From UHGV virus genome UHGV-1708535: DNA of 10,358 nucleotides; one strand, given 5' to 3'. Positions 2,243-10,358 of this stretch are shown here, in pieces. Source of the DNA: a virus. Made by a program: the position numbers and the translations under genes. The stretch's first letter is position 1, and every line of letters begins with the position of its first letter. The notes beneath the pieces are model-generated. The model saw nothing but the letters and a program-made list of their open reading frames with translations. It had not been told where the DNA came from and did no database searches.

Positions 2243-3496
2243 TTACTGCCCGGCAATAACGATGCCCGTATATTCAGGAACCAGTACAGAGCAACCGTAC
2301 AGAGTGGTGAAACGTGCAGTGGTTACGCCTTTGATGTGGTCGAAGGCGTAAGACATGATCAGCGTAGCGCCCTGCTCGGTGGTTGCTGTCATTACCTGTG
2401 GCCCCTGACCAGTCGGGAATGCCAGTTTGCCGTACATCAGTTCAACAGAACCATCAGCCCAGAACAGGTTAGCCGGTGCGGCATTTTTGTTGAGAATGGT
2501 AATTGCTGCACCATTTGCCGCGTTAGCATCAACGTTTGCATATGGACGGCTGGCGACATCCGCGTTGTCAGGCGGCAAAATTTTCGGGGAGATAGTTACT
2601 GTCGTTCCGCTAACTGCCAGAACGCGGAATACCTGCGGCTGCCCGGTGGTGTCTTTGGTGATCTGGTGTACAGAATTCACCCCTGCAATGGTAAATGCAT
2701 CGCCAACCTGCAAACCTTCAGCAGATACCGTAATGGTCCCCTGTCGGTTATCAACTGGCATATCGTTAGCATCTTTCGCTTCAACTTTGTGCGCAGGTGC
2801 TGCTGCCAGCGTAATGGAAGTTGCTGTCCCTTTCGGAACACGACCAGAAATATCGGTCTTGTAGCTATCAAAGGAAGCAACCGGAGGGATCTGCGCTTTT
2901 TCGTATGCTGTCAGGGTTGCGCCCTGAGCGTAGGCACGATGACCAAGCTCGCCAGCAAGGTCTTTGTAGTTGAAGGGGTTCCAGAAAGAGCGACGGTTGA
3001 TACCCTGCGGTACACCAATCGCCGTCATGGTGGCATCAATACCTGCCGCACAGTTCCACAAATCACGGCCCTGTGAACCAGTGGTTGAGTCAGCCATTGC
3101 GATCACGTTAGTAGCACGCTGCGTGACCATGGAAATCAGGTCAGAGTCAATCTGTGCAGCAAGGCGCATACCTGCGGCGCGACCAGCTTCAGTTTTATGT
3201 TCCGGGTCACGCATTTCACGCGCATCCAGAGTGTACAGAATGTTTTTAGGCTCCTTGAACACAGAAGGAACAAGGCGCTGAACCAGTGCTGTTGGCGTTT
3301 TGCTGCTGAGGTCGAGGCCTTCCTCAATGTTCATGTGGTAATGCTGCGGACGATACAGAACATCACCTGCTCGCTGCATTGCTGTATCACCGGGACGGAA
3401 TTTTTTAGCGTTACGGGAAACTACGCAGGCGGCCTCAAAGCCTTCAACGTAGTTTTCGAACATGATTTCAAGGTCTTTTGCTAATTGGTTAGCCAT
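2243..3496 (-). CDS. Major capsid (coat) protein, P22 gp5-like, 417 aa
   Basis: ORF track 2243..3496; position directly after the scaffolding gene; segments such as AMQRAGDVLYRP and RPYANVDANAANGAAITILNKNAAPANLFWADGS resemble P22 coat segments as I recall them ([46 protein letters not shown]); GGAG 8 nt upstream of the ATG. Confidence 0.88.
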   Translation of the reverse strand: MANQLAKDLEIMFENYVEGFEAACVVSRNAKKFRPGDTAMQRAGDVLYRPQHYHMNIEEGLDLSSKTPTALVQRLVPSVFKEPKNILYTLDAREMRDPEHKTEAGRAAGMRLAAQIDSDLISMVTQRATNVIAMADSTTGSQGRDLWNCAAGIDATMTAIGVPQGINRRSFWNPFNYKDLAGELGHRAYAQGATLTAYEKAQIPPVASFDSYKTDISGRVPKGTATSITLAAAPAHKVEAKDANDMPVDNRQGTITVSAEGLQVGDAFTIAGVNSVHQITKDTTGQPQVFRVLAVSGTTVTISPKILPPDNADVASRPYANVDANAANGAAITILNKNAAPANLFWADGSVELMYGKLAFPTGQGPQVMTATTEQGATLIMSYAFDHIKGVTTARFTTLYGCSVLVPEYTGIVIAGQ

Positions 3497-4498: not shown

Positions 4499-6694
4499 TT
4501 ACTGCTGTGGTTGTTGCTGAGTTGATTTTTTCAGGATGCTGCTGATGCCCATACGCTGCGCATGACCCTGTGCCTGACTTTTCAGGACAAGCTCTGCATC
4601 AGCACGGGCATTGTCTCCTTGCTGTTGCTGGAACTGTCCGAGCAGTTTCAGAGCCTCGCGGATATCAGATTTCTGCTGACTATCGGCAGATGCGAGGATT
4701 TTCACAACATTTGCCGCTGCAACCTGAGCATCAGTCTGTGCCTGGAATGCTTTAACCTGAATGGCTGCCTGTTCGTTCTGTGCTTTCTGCAATTCAGCCT
4801 GACCAGCAAGAAGCTGACCTTGCGCTGCAACCATAGCCGGATCTGGCTGACTGGCCTGTTGTTTCGCCTGCTCAACCATTTGCTGTTCTTCAGGCGTTCT
4901 CGGCTTGATAACGCCAGACAGAAGCAACTGATTGCGGTTGTATTCTTTAAGGTCGTCCATCCCTTCGCCGTCCATATTGTCGAGAATCATCGACGATACA
5001 AGGTCGTGCTTCGGCGTCCCTGGCGGGATAAGTGCCAGCATGGAAAGTAACGACTTAACCGTTGCATCACGGCGAGTAGCGAACGACTGACCGACATCGA
5101 CAGTCACTTCGTAGTTACCCTGCGAAAGGTCGTTAAGCGCGATAACCTGCCCTGTCTGACGGTCAACCACTTCACCAGTCATCAGCGCCACGTCATCGCT
5201 GCCGTCCTCATTAACGATACGCATCGGCGTATCGCTGCCATAGACTTCACGCGCCATAGAAAGCCACACAACGCCAGCGCGACGCATGGATTTAGCCATG
5301 TTGTCCATGTAGATATAGGACTGCGTATCCATCCGGTTAAAGATGCTATCAACGGTATCGGTGGCGACGTTGCTCGGCATGTTCTCAAGCTGCGACGCAC
5401 CTGTAATTTGCTGAATAGCCGTTCCGGTGTACTGCAATAGCCCGGCAAGAGCTGGAGGCATTTGTGTCGGAGGTGTATAACTGCTGACCTGAGCCTGCGC
5501 AGTAATATCTCCGTTTTTGTTTTTCAGACTGACCATCGGCAGGAACGCCGGGCGCTTTTTGTTGCGCTCCGCCCAATGAGTGGCAAGAGGACCAGGAATC
5601 ATGTCAACATCAACTACAGGAATGCCATCACCGCCAGCCTGAGTGGCGTTATCTGCAATCATGGAAACCATCAGGTTCTCAAGACGCTGTGCATCCATCG
5701 CTTTTGCTGCGTGGCCTTCGATTCGCTCCTGATTATCAACAAATGAGCGACGCCCATATACCGGGATGAGAGGAATATGTTCGCCCGGAATACGCTTCGG
5801 TTCTTCCAGCCATTCAGCGCCAGACAGAAGGCCGCAATAAACGCGGCGTTTCTTCACTGTCCGCTCGCCAATCAGTTCGAATGCGCCATCGGTCAGCTCG
5901 TCAACAACATCTTTGATTTGCTCTTCATCATAGATTGCCGTTTCTCCGCTAACAGGGTTGCGCCACGCCGTGAGCTTCACCTTCTCTATGCGAACTTCGT
6001 AGTAGCGTCCAACATAGATGGCATCAGGCGTTGACCAGTCATACTGAGTACCAGTGTCATCACGAGAAAGACTTGCCGCGATGGAGTCAGGGTATTCAGC
6101 CTTGAACGCTTTAGGCGTCATGGAGAACATTTCCATAGCCCACATAGCATCAGAGCGGTCATATTGCTTGCTGTCCTGATCGAAGAAGACGCATGTCGCT
6201 GGGTCGTAAACAGGAAGAAGACTGATGCGTCGCTGCTCGTTACTCGGATCCATTTCATCTTCGTAATCAGCACACATGCGGAAACAACCGAATCCGCCCG
6301 TTACAGCATCATCAAATGCGTTATCACACGCTTCGCCACCGGATGTTTCCTGATAGTCAGCGCGGAATTTGCCGTTCATCTTTTCGGCTAACGCTTCCGA
6401 TGCCTTATCGTCCTTCGGCCTGAATTTAACGCTGATGCGATTCTGTCGATACTCGCCAATGATGCGATCACATTCACGGGCAATCTTATTCAGTTCAAAG
6501 CGCGGGTAATGCTCAAACCTTCCTTCATCAAATGAGTAACCAGCGTTTGTGCTGCCTTCCCACTGTGCGCCGGACACCCGGACGAAACGTTGAGCCTCAA
6601 TAATCTGCTCACGCATATCCTGCGTTGCTGACCAGGCATTATCAAAGTTGCACAGCACCTTGCGATGCCAGTCAGTCATCTTTTTTTCTGCCAT
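4499..6694 (-). CDS. Portal protein, P22 gp1-like, 731 aa
   Basis: ORF track 4499..6694; directly downstream of the large terminase gene (TGA-t-ATG junction); length close to the P22 portal (about 725 aa as I recall); internal segments (DYEDEMDPSNEQRRISLLPVYDP, GEHIPLIPVYG) and the Gln/Ala-rich helical C-terminus resemble the P22 portal from memory. Confidence 0.9.
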   Translation of the reverse strand: MAEKKMTDWHRKVLCNFDNAWSATQDMREQIIEAQRFVRVSGAQWEGSTNAGYSFDEGRFEHYPRFELNKIARECDRIIGEYRQNRISVKFRPKDDKASEALAEKMNGKFRADYQETSGGEACDNAFDDAVTGGFGCFRMCADYEDEMDPSNEQRRISLLPVYDPATCVFFDQDSKQYDRSDAMWAMEMFSMTPKAFKAEYPDSIAASLSRDDTGTQYDWSTPDAIYVGRYYEVRIEKVKLTAWRNPVSGETAIYDEEQIKDVVDELTDGAFELIGERTVKKRRVYCGLLSGAEWLEEPKRIPGEHIPLIPVYGRRSFVDNQERIEGHAAKAMDAQRLENLMVSMIADNATQAGGDGIPVVDVDMIPGPLATHWAERNKKRPAFLPMVSLKNKNGDITAQAQVSSYTPPTQMPPALAGLLQYTGTAIQQITGASQLENMPSNVATDTVDSIFNRMDTQSYIYMDNMAKSMRRAGVVWLSMAREVYGSDTPMRIVNEDGSDDVALMTGEVVDRQTGQVIALNDLSQGNYEVTVDVGQSFATRRDATVKSLLSMLALIPPGTPKHDLVSSMILDNMDGEGMDDLKEYNRNQLLLSGVIKPRTPEEQQMVEQAKQQASQPDPAMVAAQGQLLAGQAELQKAQNEQAAIQVKAFQAQTDAQVAAANVVKILASADSQQKSDIREALKLLGQFQQQQGDNARADAELVLKSQAQGHAQRMGISSILKKSTQQQPQQ

Positions 6695-8111: not shown

Positions 8112-8530
8112 TTTCCGAATAGAGTGCTCATCGGTGATGTTTCAATCTGGATTGCGCCGCCGTCCTTACCGACAAGCTCGTTAGTTACCTTGTCGCCATA
8201 CTTACGGGGATTCATTCGGGCCAACGCCCATTTACGGGTATCTACGCGAAGTCTTGCCTTTGCCACCTCAGCAGCATCTGGAATCGCAGTGTCAGCAATT
8301 TCGAATATCTCTTCGAAAATAGAATCAGCTCGTGCCTCAGTTGCCTTCGCGTACTTGTCGCGAAAATCCTCATGCTTTGCCAACCAGCGGAAAACAGTGG
8401 ACTTATCCGGCATACCAGGACGCTTACATACTTTCAGCAGACTTTCGCCAGAAGAAAGCAACGAGCAGATATCGTCAGCCACCTCCGGCATATAATCAGA
8501 GGGGCGACCAGCTTTTGGTTCAGTCGCCAT
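8108..8530 (-). CDS. terS: Terminase small subunit (Sf6 gp1-like), 140 aa from the second ATG (142 aa if the ATG at 8534-8536 is used)
   Basis: ORF track 8108..8536; gene immediately upstream of terL and overlapping it by 4 nt; sequence MATEPKAGRPSDYMPEVADDICSLLSSGESLLKVCKRPGMPDKSTVFRWLAKHEDFRDKY has the HTH-like N-terminal DNA-binding region typical of small terminases. I chose the second ATG (8528-8530) because the GTGAG purine run abuts the first ATG with no spacer; this choice is uncertain. Confidence 0.8.
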   Translation of the reverse strand: MATEPKAGRPSDYMPEVADDICSLLSSGESLLKVCKRPGMPDKSTVFRWLAKHEDFRDKYAKATEARADSIFEEIFEIADTAIPDAAEVAKARLRVDTRKWALARMNPRKYGDKVTNELVGKDGGAIQIETSPMSTLFGK

Positions 8531-8553
8531 ATTCATCTCACTTAGTTGTTATT

Positions 8554-8733
8554 TCAGGCTGAGGACTCTTTCGCGCCTTCAATCAGTGACTGCTTCAGCA
8601 ATTCGAGTGTGCCAATCGCCTCACATAAACTGATTTCACCATCGTAATCATGAATGACGCTTTCCAGCCGCTCGTATAGCTCTTGAGTAATTGGGAATTT
8701 CTTCTCCTTACCAAAATTGATTACGCGGCTCAC
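8554..8733 (-). CDS. Hypothetical small protein, 59 codons, GTG start; possible ribbon-helix-helix-like fold
   Basis: Not in the track (below 60 aa). Open frame from GTG at 8731-8733 to TGA at 8554-8556, GGAG 6 nt upstream of the GTG, 2 nt after the stop of the 80-aa ORF and 17 nt before terS. Translation (V)SRVINFGKEKKFPITQELYERLESVIHDYDGEISLCEAIGTLELLKQSLIEGAKESSA shows a strand-helix-turn-helix pattern reminiscent of RHH proteins; this is pattern inference only. Confidence 0.4.
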   Translation of the reverse strand: MSRVINFGKEKKFPITQELYERLESVIHDYDGEISLCEAIGTLELLKQSLIEGAKESSA

Positions 8734-8734
8734 A

Positions 8735-8977
8735 TCATGCTCCGGTAGTGAACAGGTCTAACGCTTCCTTCGATTTACGCACTGCTTCGATAGTGCGGGT
8801 CGTGATATCTGAATTAGCGCCGCCTGACTGGAAGTGAATTTTAAATAGCTCAAGCTTCAGCTCGTCAGTGCCAATGAACTGAAATGCTTCTTCTGCGGCT
8901 GCGTTCTGGTTCATGACCAGTTTGTAAATCTCTAACTGGAATTTCTGTTCTTCAGTCATGGGAATAATCTCTGCCAT
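8735..8977 (-). CDS. Hypothetical protein, 80 aa
   Basis: ORF track 8735..8977; GGAG 7 nt upstream of the ATG at 8975-8977; same strand and tight packing with neighbours; predicted helical, no family recognised. Confidence 0.6.
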   Translation of the reverse strand: MAEIIPMTEEQKFQLEIYKLVMNQNAAAEEAFQFIGTDELKLELFKIHFQSGGANSDITTRTIEAVRKSKEALDLFTTGA

Positions 8978-8990
8978 TGTTGGCTCCGTT

Positions 8991-9071
8991 TATCCGTTAA
9001 AAGGGATATCAGTTAAGTTATCCCGTGTAGGGTATAAGCCATTATCAAAGCCACTCTGTAGGGAATGGCTT
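8991..9071. repeat. Cluster of nested inverted repeats in the 103-bp spacer upstream of the 80-aa ORF
   Basis: Plus strand: TATCC (8991-8995) and TATCCC (9019-9024) can each pair with GGGATA (9003-9008); AAGCCATT (9036-9043) and AAGCCA (9046-9051) can each pair with AATGGCTT (9064-9071). These form two sets of mutually exclusive stems, adjacent to the Shine-Dalgarno of the 80-aa ORF. Confidence 0.6.
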
Positions 9072-9080
9072 TTGTAATAA

Positions 9081-9455
9081 CTACTGTTCGCTTAGCTTCT
9101 GCTTCAGCAAGTAACCTTCGAGCATCCAGATTTTGTTTACAGCATTCTGCCGGGCAATCTTCCGACCAATTTCTGCATCAAAGTTTTCCGGGCTCGCACA
9201 GGCACTCTCTCCGGTAACGGTGAAGCCATTCTTCAGTACCAATACGCAGAAAGTGAGAAGGTGCAGAGCATCAGGGGTGGCTTCGACATAAGGCTCCGGA
9301 TTATAAATAAGGTCATCTTCTTTAGCCTGGTGGTCACCCTGCGCAGCAGTGAAAAAATGCTCACTGCAAATGAGGCCTTCAATTTTCTCGGGTGTTACAC
9401 GCGGTGCCGTTTTGCCTTTCTCAACGATTTCTTTTTCGATTTGCTGGTCGTTCAT
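9081..9455 (-). CDS. Hypothetical protein, 124 aa, no family recognised
   Basis: ORF track 9081..9455; AGGGG 9 nt upstream of the ATG at 9453-9455; in-frame TGA 16 codons upstream rules out a longer N-terminus; flanked by non-coding spacers of 289 bp and 103 bp. Confidence 0.65.
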   Translation of the reverse strand: MNDQQIEKEIVEKGKTAPRVTPEKIEGLICSEHFFTAAQGDHQAKEDDLIYNPEPYVEATPDALHLLTFCVLVLKNGFTVTGESACASPENFDAEIGRKIARQNAVNKIWMLEGYLLKQKLSEQ

Positions 9456-9651
9456 AATTATGCCCCTGTGGAGTGGTTGCTTGATTAGGATGTCTTTCCA
9501 TCAGTCCGCCACCACAAAGAATCTTTTTTGCCATAAGGCAGGAGGTTCATCTTTCAGTGGCTGCCAGTGTTATTTCCCCGCTTACTGGCTTGGGTTGTTT
9601 CGCTGTACTGCCGTTAATTGGTTGCCCAGAATAAATTCCGGTTTCATTATC

Positions 9652-9673
9652 AAGCCCACCCGTAGATGGGCTT
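9652..9673. repeat. Stable hairpin (7-bp stem, 8-nt loop) in the 289-bp spacer
   Basis: Plus strand AAGCCCA (9652-9658) pairs with TGGGCTT (9667-9673). On the plus strand it is followed by TGTAAT (weak U-rich tail); on the minus strand by GAUAAUG (no U-tract). Confidence 0.7.
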
Positions 9674-9723
9674 TGTAATGGATAGCCGTTGCTCAGTTCT
9701 CGTAATGCTTTGATTTTTTCGAT

Positions 9724-9739
9724 AACGCAGTTTTGCGTT
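9724..9739. repeat. Hairpin (6-bp stem, 4-nt loop) immediately 3' of the KilA-N gene stop
   Basis: Plus strand AACGCA (9724-9729), loop GTTT, TGCGTT (9734-9739). On the minus-strand RNA it is followed by AUCGAAAAAAUC (A-rich, not a terminator tail). Confidence 0.65.
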
Positions 9740-9744
9740 TGCCA

Positions 9745-10266
9745 TCAGCACGCGATATCGAGAGTCAACTGCAGTTGCTCGCGCCAGTACTCGACATTTG
9801 CTTCAATAACCGGCTTATCCCATCGCCAGCGAGCCATCTCTCTTGCCCCATTGCTGGCTTTTGATTTCCGGTCATCGCGAATGCGACATGCTTGCTCATA
9901 TTTCTGCTGCTCAGTCAGTTCACCGCGAAGCAGACTATCAATGTGCAGGTCGCACCACACAGCAAAACGAGCATCACACCAACGGGCAAATGCAACTGAA
10001 AGTTTTGGATGTAGCCACGTACCACCACCCCTGTCCTTTCGTGCCTTGCTGGTTTTTACATACCTCGATTGTGAGGGATGTAAAATTTGAGATTCTTTCC
10101 CGGTCAACGCTTCGTCTAAAGCACGAACGTATTCAAGCGTTTCTGCCAAACGCATCCAGTTATCAATGCGTTTCCCAAATCTCTCAGCAACACCTGTGAC
10201 GTTGATCCAACCATCAGTGTTGAAACTGACAATTTCACCTTTGTAGTTAAGTGGCACGATATTCAT
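9745..10266 (-). CDS. KilA-N domain-containing protein, 173 aa
   Basis: ORF track 9745..10266; the translation contains the pattern I associate with KilA-N/APSES-type domains (GGGTWLHPKLSVAFARWCDARFAVW preceded by an N-terminal region NYKGEIVSFNTDGWINVTGVAERFGK); AT-rich codon choice relative to the structural genes. Domain assignment is from memory. Confidence 0.65.
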   Translation of the reverse strand: MNIVPLNYKGEIVSFNTDGWINVTGVAERFGKRIDNWMRLAETLEYVRALDEALTGKESQILHPSQSRYVKTSKARKDRGGGTWLHPKLSVAFARWCDARFAVWCDLHIDSLLRGELTEQQKYEQACRIRDDRKSKASNGAREMARWRWDKPVIEANVEYWREQLQLTLDIAC

Positions 10267-10358
10267 AACGTTTACCTACCATTTGAAATGAACCTTTGCC
10301 GCACAGGAAACCAGCCCACCGAGGCTCGCCAGCACTAACTGGTATCCTCAAAGGCCCA

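Follow-up and report, generated by a model that had tools for sequence, protein, structure and literature searches.

A covarying late-mRNA hairpin resembling phage T7 RNase III sites, with adjoining tandem palindromes, in an intercistronic spacer of an Sf6/P22-like phage

The virus genome UHGV-1708535 was analysed over a stretch of 10,358 nucleotides (nt), henceforth the window, which corresponds to the late region of an Sf6/P22-like phage (Lederbergvirus) with its genes on the minus strand, where the late transcript is Q-antiterminated. As transcribed, the order is a KilA-N protein gene (10266-9745), a gene for a 124-amino-acid (aa) Phage_gp49_66 protein that is the homologue of Sf6 gene 66 (9455-9081; Pfam E = 2.4e-34), a 103-nt spacer (8978-9080), the gene for an 80-aa DUF2560 protein homologous to P22 orf80 (8977-8735), a 59-aa open reading frame (ORF), and the small terminase, large terminase and portal genes. 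The initiation region of the 80-aa gene (8975-8987) has its Shine-Dalgarno (SD) sequence GGAG at 8987-8984 and its ATG at 8977-8975. The nearest record is Sf6 itself, where the same spacer lies between genes 66 and 67 without annotation. This spacer is our subject: its left half, in the direction of transcription, is occupied by a bipartite stem-loop, which we call hairpin A (9036-9082), and its right half by two tandem palindromic units (9018-9037 and 8990-9009), all on the minus strand.

An earlier note, made from the sequence of the window, had described the spacer as two sets of mutually exclusive hairpins next to a ribosome-binding site, and had offered an RNA switch for the 80-aa ORF, an RNase processing site or a protein-binding site as its function. 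The complementary words behind that description are present on the plus strand (GGGATA at 9003-9008, TATCC at 8991-8995, TATCCC at 9019-9024, AATGGCTT at 9064-9071 and AAGCCATT at 9036-9043), as is the second copy, AAGCCA, which had been placed at 9046-9051 and lies 2 positions further on, at 9048-9053; the 5'-most element is 3 nt from the GGAG, as described. The mutual exclusivity did not survive: the left set is one nested hairpin, and the right set is a by-product of the tandem palindromes.

On the late-mRNA strand hairpin A (covariance-model match of 64.4 bits) has a 7-bp lower stem, in which GUUAUUA (9081-9075) pairs with UAAUGGC (9044-9038), a symmetric 2x2 internal loop with CA (9074-9073) opposite GA (9046-9045), a 10-bp upper stem formed by AAAGCCAUUC (9072-9063) and GAGUGGCUUU (9056-9047), and an apical loop CCUACA (9062-9057). 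The G at 9081 is the final base of the upstream UAG stop codon, and the helix, which appears in both the minimum free energy (MFE) and the centroid folds, can be extended by 1-2 further pairs through that codon. The folding of the region exceeds chance: a 131-nt stretch containing the spacer has a z-score of -4.24 on the transcribed strand, a value reached by 0 of 200 shuffles, versus -2.46 on the opposite strand, and hairpin A by itself has a z-score of -5.59. The pairing that had been proposed as its competitor, which on the mRNA strand reads AAGCCAUU:AAUGGCUU, reaches -7.1 kcal/mol as against -19.5 kcal/mol for the nested fold and has an ensemble probability of about zero.

Comparison of homologues also separates the two pairings. 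Across 36 distinct homologues 98.1% of the cells of the nested hairpin are paired and 6 pairs are altered on both sides, whereas the alternative helix AAGCCATT:AATGGCTT is 87.5% paired, is broken at three of its pairs in 17/36, 11/36 and 6/36 sequences, and shows no double changes. Over 89 distinct family members, aligned to the covariance model so that the pairing counts are somewhat inflated, hairpin A is 94.6% paired versus 83.2% in shuffled alignments, compensatory double changes occur at 13 of its 17 pairs, and the covariation score is 0.375 versus 0.165; for all four measures none of 500 shuffles did as well. Covariation in homologues, which the earlier note had put forward as a check, is seen for the nested hairpin and not for the alternative pairings. 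The G·U cells in this alignment number 221 and the A·C cells 26, and the sense-strand MFE is the lower one in 86/89 variants; the structure is therefore one selected on the late-mRNA strand. The CA/GA internal loop is invariant or nearly so, including in the set in which the search pattern left it free, and the AUG in the 3' arm of the lower stem is kept in 54/55 unconstrained variants with a partner that varies between C and U.

BLAST comparisons show that the core of about 90 nt around this element is a separate mosaic unit. It occurs with orf80 but other upstream genes in HK97, HK022, HK620 and epsilon34, with the end of gene 66 but other downstream sequence in Stx phages, and with neither flanking gene in mEp460 and Ayreon, and overall its distinct neighbours number at least 9 upstream and at least 5 downstream. 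The composite element is found in 2557 of 5426 complete E. coli genomes, where it is unannotated, and a pattern scan of IMG/VR returned 55 distinct versions with three hairpin types. A wider search in which only the outer arms CATTACAAAG...CTTGATAATG were fixed, and the common inner stem was excluded, retrieved more than 190 further loci. Over all the loci together, 84 different inner sequences stand between the fixed arms, about 79 of which form a perfect 9-bp stem with a 4-nt loop. The placement relative to the upstream gene is likewise persistent: the stop codon of the upstream sense ORF ends exactly 1 nt 5' of the hairpin in 62 of 176 distinct contexts and within 6 nt of it in 113. These contexts include the spacer after the major tail subunit genes of Klebsiella and Cronobacter phages and a moron beside Q, and in other phages hairpin A precedes other genes or convergent ones. 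The SD and ATGGCA module that heads the 80-aa gene likewise heads other genes elsewhere, with a different downstream ORF at loci L138, L140 and L063.

Two observations touch on this distribution. At one locus (L031) a small ORF located just past the Q gene is succeeded by a hairpin A variant (5004-5044) whose inner stem differs; after this hairpin, ahead of the lysis genes, comes a 172-aa ORF (5093-5611) which by inspection has the look of an HNH/NUMOD-type endonuclease. Near-identical copies of the E. coli phage element also occur in metagenome bins labelled Cellvibrionaceae, Nanosynbacter, Bacillota and Collinsella (L134, L135, L136, L143, L144), whose contigs are probably mis-binned.

The hairpin is often repeated within one late region. 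The window has a second copy, of type 3 (CCATTACAAAGCCCATCTACGGGTGGGCTTGATAATG; 9643-9683, minus strand; 48.6 bits, E = 1e-10; fold z-score -4.65), which lies 3' of the KilA-N gene and about 600 nt upstream of the spacer. In the whole Sf6 genome the hairpin model matches exactly these two copies; it matches two in HK97, two in HK620 and one in P22. Two direct copies are present at 42 of 126 loci, where the inserts that they flank give copy spacings of 244 to about 3000 nt. Between the two copies in the window lies a conserved non-coding segment of about 155 nt, "unit X" (9489-9642, minus strand), which is common to HK97, HK620, P22 and ST64T (elsewhere at L002 2345-2499, L130 1587-1799 and L129 ~985-1109), whose small ORFs are not conserved, and which contains a sub-threshold match to the Rfam family Proteo-phage-1 (16.8 bits). 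Unit X ends in GGAAAGACATC, directly after which five different small cassettes are inserted in different phages, the gene-66 homologue being one of them. In loci L015, L040, L060, L016, L085, L012 and L019, this point (about 9489 in the window) is followed by nothing, by a 23-aa ORF, by a 57-aa or an 80-aa ORF each with its own terminator, by the gene-66 homologue, or by two of these in tandem. The gp66-family gene of the window, on comparison with HK97, HK620 and P22, is a cassette inserted between unit X and hairpin A. Forms that have the unit-X segment and forms that lack it differ in the way that recombination between the hairpin copies would produce, and in L019 a cassette junction falls inside the 5' arm of hairpin A itself.

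In these respects the element resembles the boundary sequences (bsq) of lambdoid phages and the PeSLs of T4-type phages, namely short conserved intergenic sequences that are found at the junctions of non-homologous modules and whose repeated copies flank variable ORFs: here too the same short intergenic sequence stands at unrelated module junctions, often in several copies. It differs from both in that the conserved unit is a covarying RNA hairpin. Moreover, the Sf6 record marks bsq2-bsq7 elsewhere and nothing in the spacer between genes 66 and 67, and whereas PeSLs hold an early promoter, a scan of both strands of 8400-10358 gave no sigma-70-like site in the element or near it.

The closest likeness of hairpin A is to the RNase III signals of phage T7 (R1.1, R1, R0.5, R1.3, R4.7 and R18.5). 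Like it, these are intercistronic hairpins in a long phage polycistronic mRNA, and in both a small loop caps an upper stem of 9-10 bp, below which come an internal loop and a lower stem; the upper stems are almost the same in sequence, and the flanks, UUACA...GAAUAGG in R1, are also alike. We folded the T7 gene 1-1.1 and 1.2-1.3 spacers for comparison. The hairpin of the 1-1.1 spacer, AAGGUCAUUC-GCAA-GAGUGGCCUU, parallels AAAGCCAUUC-CCUACA-GAGUGGCUUU of the window, including its U·G/U-A step, and T7 R1, UUACAGGUCAUCUGCGGGUGGCCUGAAUAGG, parallels the common family variant UUACAAAGCUCAUCUGCGGGUGGGCUUGAUAAUGG, flanks included. When a hairpin model built solely from lambdoid sequences was run on the 40-kb T7 genome, the matches at 36830-36853, 5861-5884 and 3104-3143 were within its top five on the plus strand. 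These lie in the gene 18-18.5, 1-1.1 and 0.7-1 spacers, which we take to be the RNase III sites R18.5, R1.1 and R1 of Dunn & Studier 1983. Conversely, with a model made from seven T7 sites, most of the best matches in 59 kb were copies of hairpin A, located in the window, Sf6, HK620 and P22. The best match of that T7 model outside the late region (20.5 bits, E = 0.005) is in Sf6 (L146) at 24783-24818 on the minus strand, between genes 34 and 35 (ral) in the early-left operon, where a stem is followed by UUUAUUUUUG; this could be a terminator or a processing site.

The features published for substrates of RNase III from E. coli fit this likeness. They typically span two helical turns, have UA/UG as the optimal distal box, and may contain internal loops that confine cleavage to one strand and leave 3' hairpins protective against exonucleases; the GCAA tetraloop of R1.1 is mentioned in the same source (PMC1540722). 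Hairpin A is a quasi-continuous helix of about two turns broken by an internal loop (7 bp, 2x2, 10 bp), lies between cistrons on the sense strand of a polycistronic phage mRNA, and resembles the T7 sites in sequence and structure in reciprocal covariance-model searches with modest E-values. There is also a precedent in that lambda late RNA is processed by RNase III (Daniels et al. 1988, as cited in PMC7547250). Owing to this combination of T7 likeness, substrate features and lambda precedent, we read hairpin A as a candidate RNase III processing and stability signal, which is the option, among those offered in the earlier note, that the sequence favours for the left half of the spacer.

Host RNase III would then cut in or beside the internal loop, with predicted sites near 9074/9073 and 9045/9044. 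After such a cut the upstream cistron, in this case the gp66-family gene, would end in a 3' stem-loop that stops 3'-exonucleases, and the orf80-orf59-terminase message downstream would acquire a new 5' end. Conserved outer arms mean that the hairpin is met again at the 3' end of one accessory cassette after another, and it would therefore also be a shared sequence at which cassettes are swapped or deleted. If so, there is a further parallel to the RNase III sites of lambda (sib/tI and the late-RNA sites), where host RNase III acts on antiterminated lambdoid transcripts, although hairpin A lies elsewhere, between Rz and terminase and, in other phages, after tail genes, and no likeness to the lambda sites in sequence was found, with no test aimed at it. 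In the retroregulation of lambda int by sib/tI, the RNA that reads through the terminator contains the RNase III site. Hairpin A stands just past a canonical terminator in some contexts, so that only read-through RNA would contain it there, as with sib.

The right half of the spacer has a different character. A pattern search together with alignment A4 delimited palindromic unit 1, TTATACCCTACACGGGATAA (9018-9037, minus strand), which has the form WTATMC-N8-GGATAA and contains the TATCCC/GGGATA segment at 9024-9019, and unit 2, ATATCCCTTTTAACGGATAA (8990-9009, minus strand), which contains TATCCC at 9008-9003 and GGATA at 8995-8991. The pattern WTATMC-N8-GGATAA has two matches in 10.4 kb, both in the spacer, with 0 expected by chance. 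In divergent relatives the linker, GGGATA...TATCCC and GGATA resolve into two tandem TTATCC(CC)-N4-8-(GG)GGATAA units, such as AATATCCCCTTGCGGGGATAAAACAAAAATATCCCCGATCGCGGATAAAGAGG. Across 22 divergent versions the half-site cores TTATCC/GGATAA are invariant or nearly so, and neither the pairing within units (77.6% versus 77.9% when shuffled) nor that between units, which is the hairpin of the earlier note (75.0% versus 74.4%), exceeds shuffled controls or shows covariation; column pair 9-16 is unpaired in 17 of the 22. Hence the inverted half-sites are conserved in sequence while their changes go uncompensated, and the complementarity of GGGATA with TATCC(C) arises because these half-sites are repeated. 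This suggests that the palindromes are a putative sequence-specific recognition site, and the sequence thus favours, for the right half, the protein-binding option that the earlier note had listed.

Lambda-type operators, of the form TATCACC...GGTGATA over 17 bp, offer the nearest comparison. As in these, the half-sites are 7 bp long (TATCCCC/GGGGATA, one base from the lambda half-site), adjoining sites are spaced 27-28 bp centre to centre, and the half-site variation is uncompensated. However, the units here are 18-20 bp rather than 17 bp long and lie inside a late operon without a promoter, and their binding by a protein is putative. The element is common to phages with different terminases and immunity regions, and as the palindromes are conserved across immunity types a phage repressor is an unlikely partner. 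The putative factor is probably host-encoded; the flanking proteins gave no informative family pointing to a palindrome partner. ST64T-like phages are without the palindromic units, and P22 has a diverged palindrome copy inside its annotated ORF25. At two loci (L233, 921-963 and 1007-1050; L171, 4469-4511 and 4555-4598) the palindrome pair is flanked on both sides by hairpin A in a cassette-like arrangement.

Considering both halves, we regard the spacer as, on balance, probably a composite cis-acting intercistronic module that combines a candidate T7-type RNase III signal with tandem palindromes as a putative recognition site; cleavage by RNase III, the position of the cut, the effect on mRNA stability and the binding of the palindromes are what we infer from the comparisons above. 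Several points weigh against this assessment. Taken one by one, the cross-scores with T7 are weak (E = 0.015 to 1.4), the model derived from T7 gives the type-1 copy a slightly better score on the antisense strand, and the coordinates and names used for the T7 sites were not taken from annotation of the T7 record. A hairpin can stabilise an mRNA without any endonuclease. At 17-19 bp the helix falls short of the roughly 22 bp found in good substrates (PMC1540722), and the strong conservation of the lower stem is not obviously explained by the known sequence preferences of RNase III. The hairpin is absent from the K-12 regions checked (the DLP12 lysis region and the whole of Qin), and K-12 is where RNase III sites have been mapped. 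The palindromes, for their part, may act at the RNA level. Finally, alignment A3, from which the counts over 89 sequences derive, was fitted to the covariance model, and most retrievals fixed part of the sequence by pattern. There are also differences from the T7 sites themselves: the phages carrying hairpin A are temperate lambdoid and P22-like forms that use the host RNA polymerase, its internal loop is a symmetric 2x2 CA/GA where that of T7 is asymmetric, its lower stem CAUUA/UAAUG is strongly conserved in its own right, and its cleavage by RNase III is a prediction.

A more far-reaching proposal can be built on the same material: that hairpin A belongs to one RNase III-type family shared by virulent T7-like and temperate lambdoid/P22-like phages, that its arms double as homology patches for the insertion, deletion and exchange of moron cassettes in late operons, as a lambdoid counterpart of the T4 PeSL, and that the palindromes are a docking site for a host factor on the late mRNA or the DNA just upstream of the packaging genes. 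We offer this tentatively, as a speculation that is rather unlikely to hold in full.

Other explanations account for parts of the data. An RNA switch, in which two mutually exclusive pairs of hairpins toggle the translation of the 80-aa ORF and later genes, would make use of the complementary segments that do exist: the TATCC:GGATA alternative has an ensemble probability of about 16% against 81% for GGGATA:TATCCC, the 3' alternative is the MFE helix in P22, and GGATA is 3 nt away from the SD. Yet the alternative helix of hairpin A, 12 kcal/mol weaker, is practically absent from the ensemble and broken in many homologues without covariation, and neither pairing of the palindromic part beats shuffles. 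The SD GGAG and the AUG are not paired with the element in the MFE and centroid folds, the SD being open in every predicted fold, and no terminator is detected either, so that no expression platform is seen. Further, it precedes unrelated or convergent genes elsewhere, ST64T lacks its palindromic part, and no aptamer or cis-regulatory family of Rfam matches it. The comparative data thus largely refute the switch, which we find scarcely credible. Translational coupling would instead exploit the AUG in the 3' arm of the lower stem, which pairs with a CAU 1 base past the stop codon, such that a terminating ribosome melts the stem and restarts on a short ORF leading into the next start. The near-constant AUG opposite a C/U-varying partner, the stop codons that abut the stem in many contexts, and the short ORFs that in some phages end on or beside the next start codon all accord with it. 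However, the hairpin AUG has no consistent SD, the short ORFs vary in length and frame with their context and their peptides are not conserved, and the conservation of the lower stem explains the AUG pattern equally well, leaving this mechanism very improbable.

An intrinsic or bidirectional terminator, or an insulator, that closes each moron cassette and acts on polymerase not modified by Q or on antisense moron transcripts, is suggested by the GC-rich upper stem, by the annotators of phage Ayreon, who labelled hairpin A "terminator", by the position of the element between convergent genes in several phages, and by the CUUUUGUAAU that follows the stem on the antisense strand. Against it, a scan of 8400-10358 gave no terminator at hairpin A, which has no U tract: its sense 3' flank is GAUAAUG, and in type 2 a U run is missing from both strands although full pairing with compensatory changes is kept. 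The antisense hairpin is weakened by the G·U wobbles in 86/89 variants, a canonical terminator with a GC stem and T-run stands immediately 5' in more than 20 contexts, and the UUUU after the second part is replaced in three variants; we therefore consider termination distinctly unlikely. Much of the modular distribution could alternatively reflect an element acting at the DNA level, as a boundary sequence or a single-strand hairpin for the recombination that shuffles cassettes (compare PeSLs and attC), with any RNA effect being secondary. The many different neighbours on both sides of the core, the inserts flanked by direct copies, the recombinant-like forms of unit X with the L019 junction inside the 5' arm, and the precedents of boundary sequences and PeSLs are in its favour. 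Nonetheless, the compensatory changes and the strong excess of G·U above A·C point to a folded single strand of sense polarity as the object of selection, and the exact placement after stop codons and the likeness to T7 sites are not expected of a recombination site. The element is also without the promoter of PeSLs, its arms (CCATTAC...GATAATGG) when read directly lack the attC core sites RYYYAAC/GTTRRRY, and no integrase-type gene adjoins it among the window ORFs examined. A primarily DNA-level role is, in our estimate, quite improbable.

Searches for a previously described counterpart of the composite module gave little. Rfam 15 had nothing relevant at E <= 10 in the window and nothing at the gathering score in 13 related loci, literature string searches with the motif sequences returned only unrelated primer matches, and no tabulation of the coordinates of T7 RNase III sites turned up in a literature search. 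Among prophage small RNAs, svsR lies at the 3' end of cI and AgvB, AsxR and StxS lie near pR', and the BTP1 non-coding RNAs held nothing relevant. Inspection alone was applied to the remaining candidates: the HK022 put-like RNA, DnaA box, IHF site, FNR box, LexA-like box, NarL heptamers and CsrA GGA do not fit all variants; attC, IS200/IS605 ends and REP/RAYT lack their core motifs here; and bypassing of the T4 gene 60 type lacks matched take-off and landing codons. The in vivo RNase III rules (PMC6212723) yielded none that is applicable before a cleavage site has been mapped, and the deletions from Sf6 experimental evolution are located in the nin region and not at the spacer.

Hairpin A is in sum a widespread signal, present at the borders of gene cassettes in many phages of gut bacteria, that is unannotated and has neither an Rfam family nor a matching searchable paper, though the kind of signal is itself known. 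Should it prove to be an RNase III site, prophages of E. coli, Shigella and Salmonella that are very common would have their long Q-antiterminated late transcripts divided at defined points, and how stable the lysis-accessory, packaging and tail messages are relative to one another would be set by this cutting, a level of late gene control overlooked in current annotation. The element also provides a tractable case for the dispute over whether mosaicism reflects conserved linker sequences or random illegitimate recombination, because a candidate functional RNA signal here supplies the conserved linker, and among natural variants there are gains and losses of cassettes between its copies.

The small ORFs that run through the element, namely a 37-aa ORF in HK97, P22 ORF25 and the ORF from the hairpin AUG, were rejected as coding since their frame, length and end differ between phages. 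Two annotated genes that overlap it are flagged as likely mis-annotated. P22 "ORF25" (L129, 1131-1232) begins in the loop of hairpin A and extends over the diverged palindromes, and for that reason is probably no gene. ST64T "orf-118" (L131, 1480-1836) has its start in unit X and continues across the hairpin into the DUF2560 gene, the true start of which is probably L131 1596. A further ORF of P22, of about 90 aa and without annotation, lies on the opposite strand (L129, ~1240-1515) together with a strong antisense terminator, AAGCCGCTAAGTAAGCGGCTTTTTT; it is inserted between the diverged element and orf80 and has the look of an antisense moron. As for the upstream cistron, in Escherichia phage Huey (H6, H31) the homologue of the 124-aa gp49/gp66-family protein carries in the record, as it stands, the label "anti-CRISPR protein".

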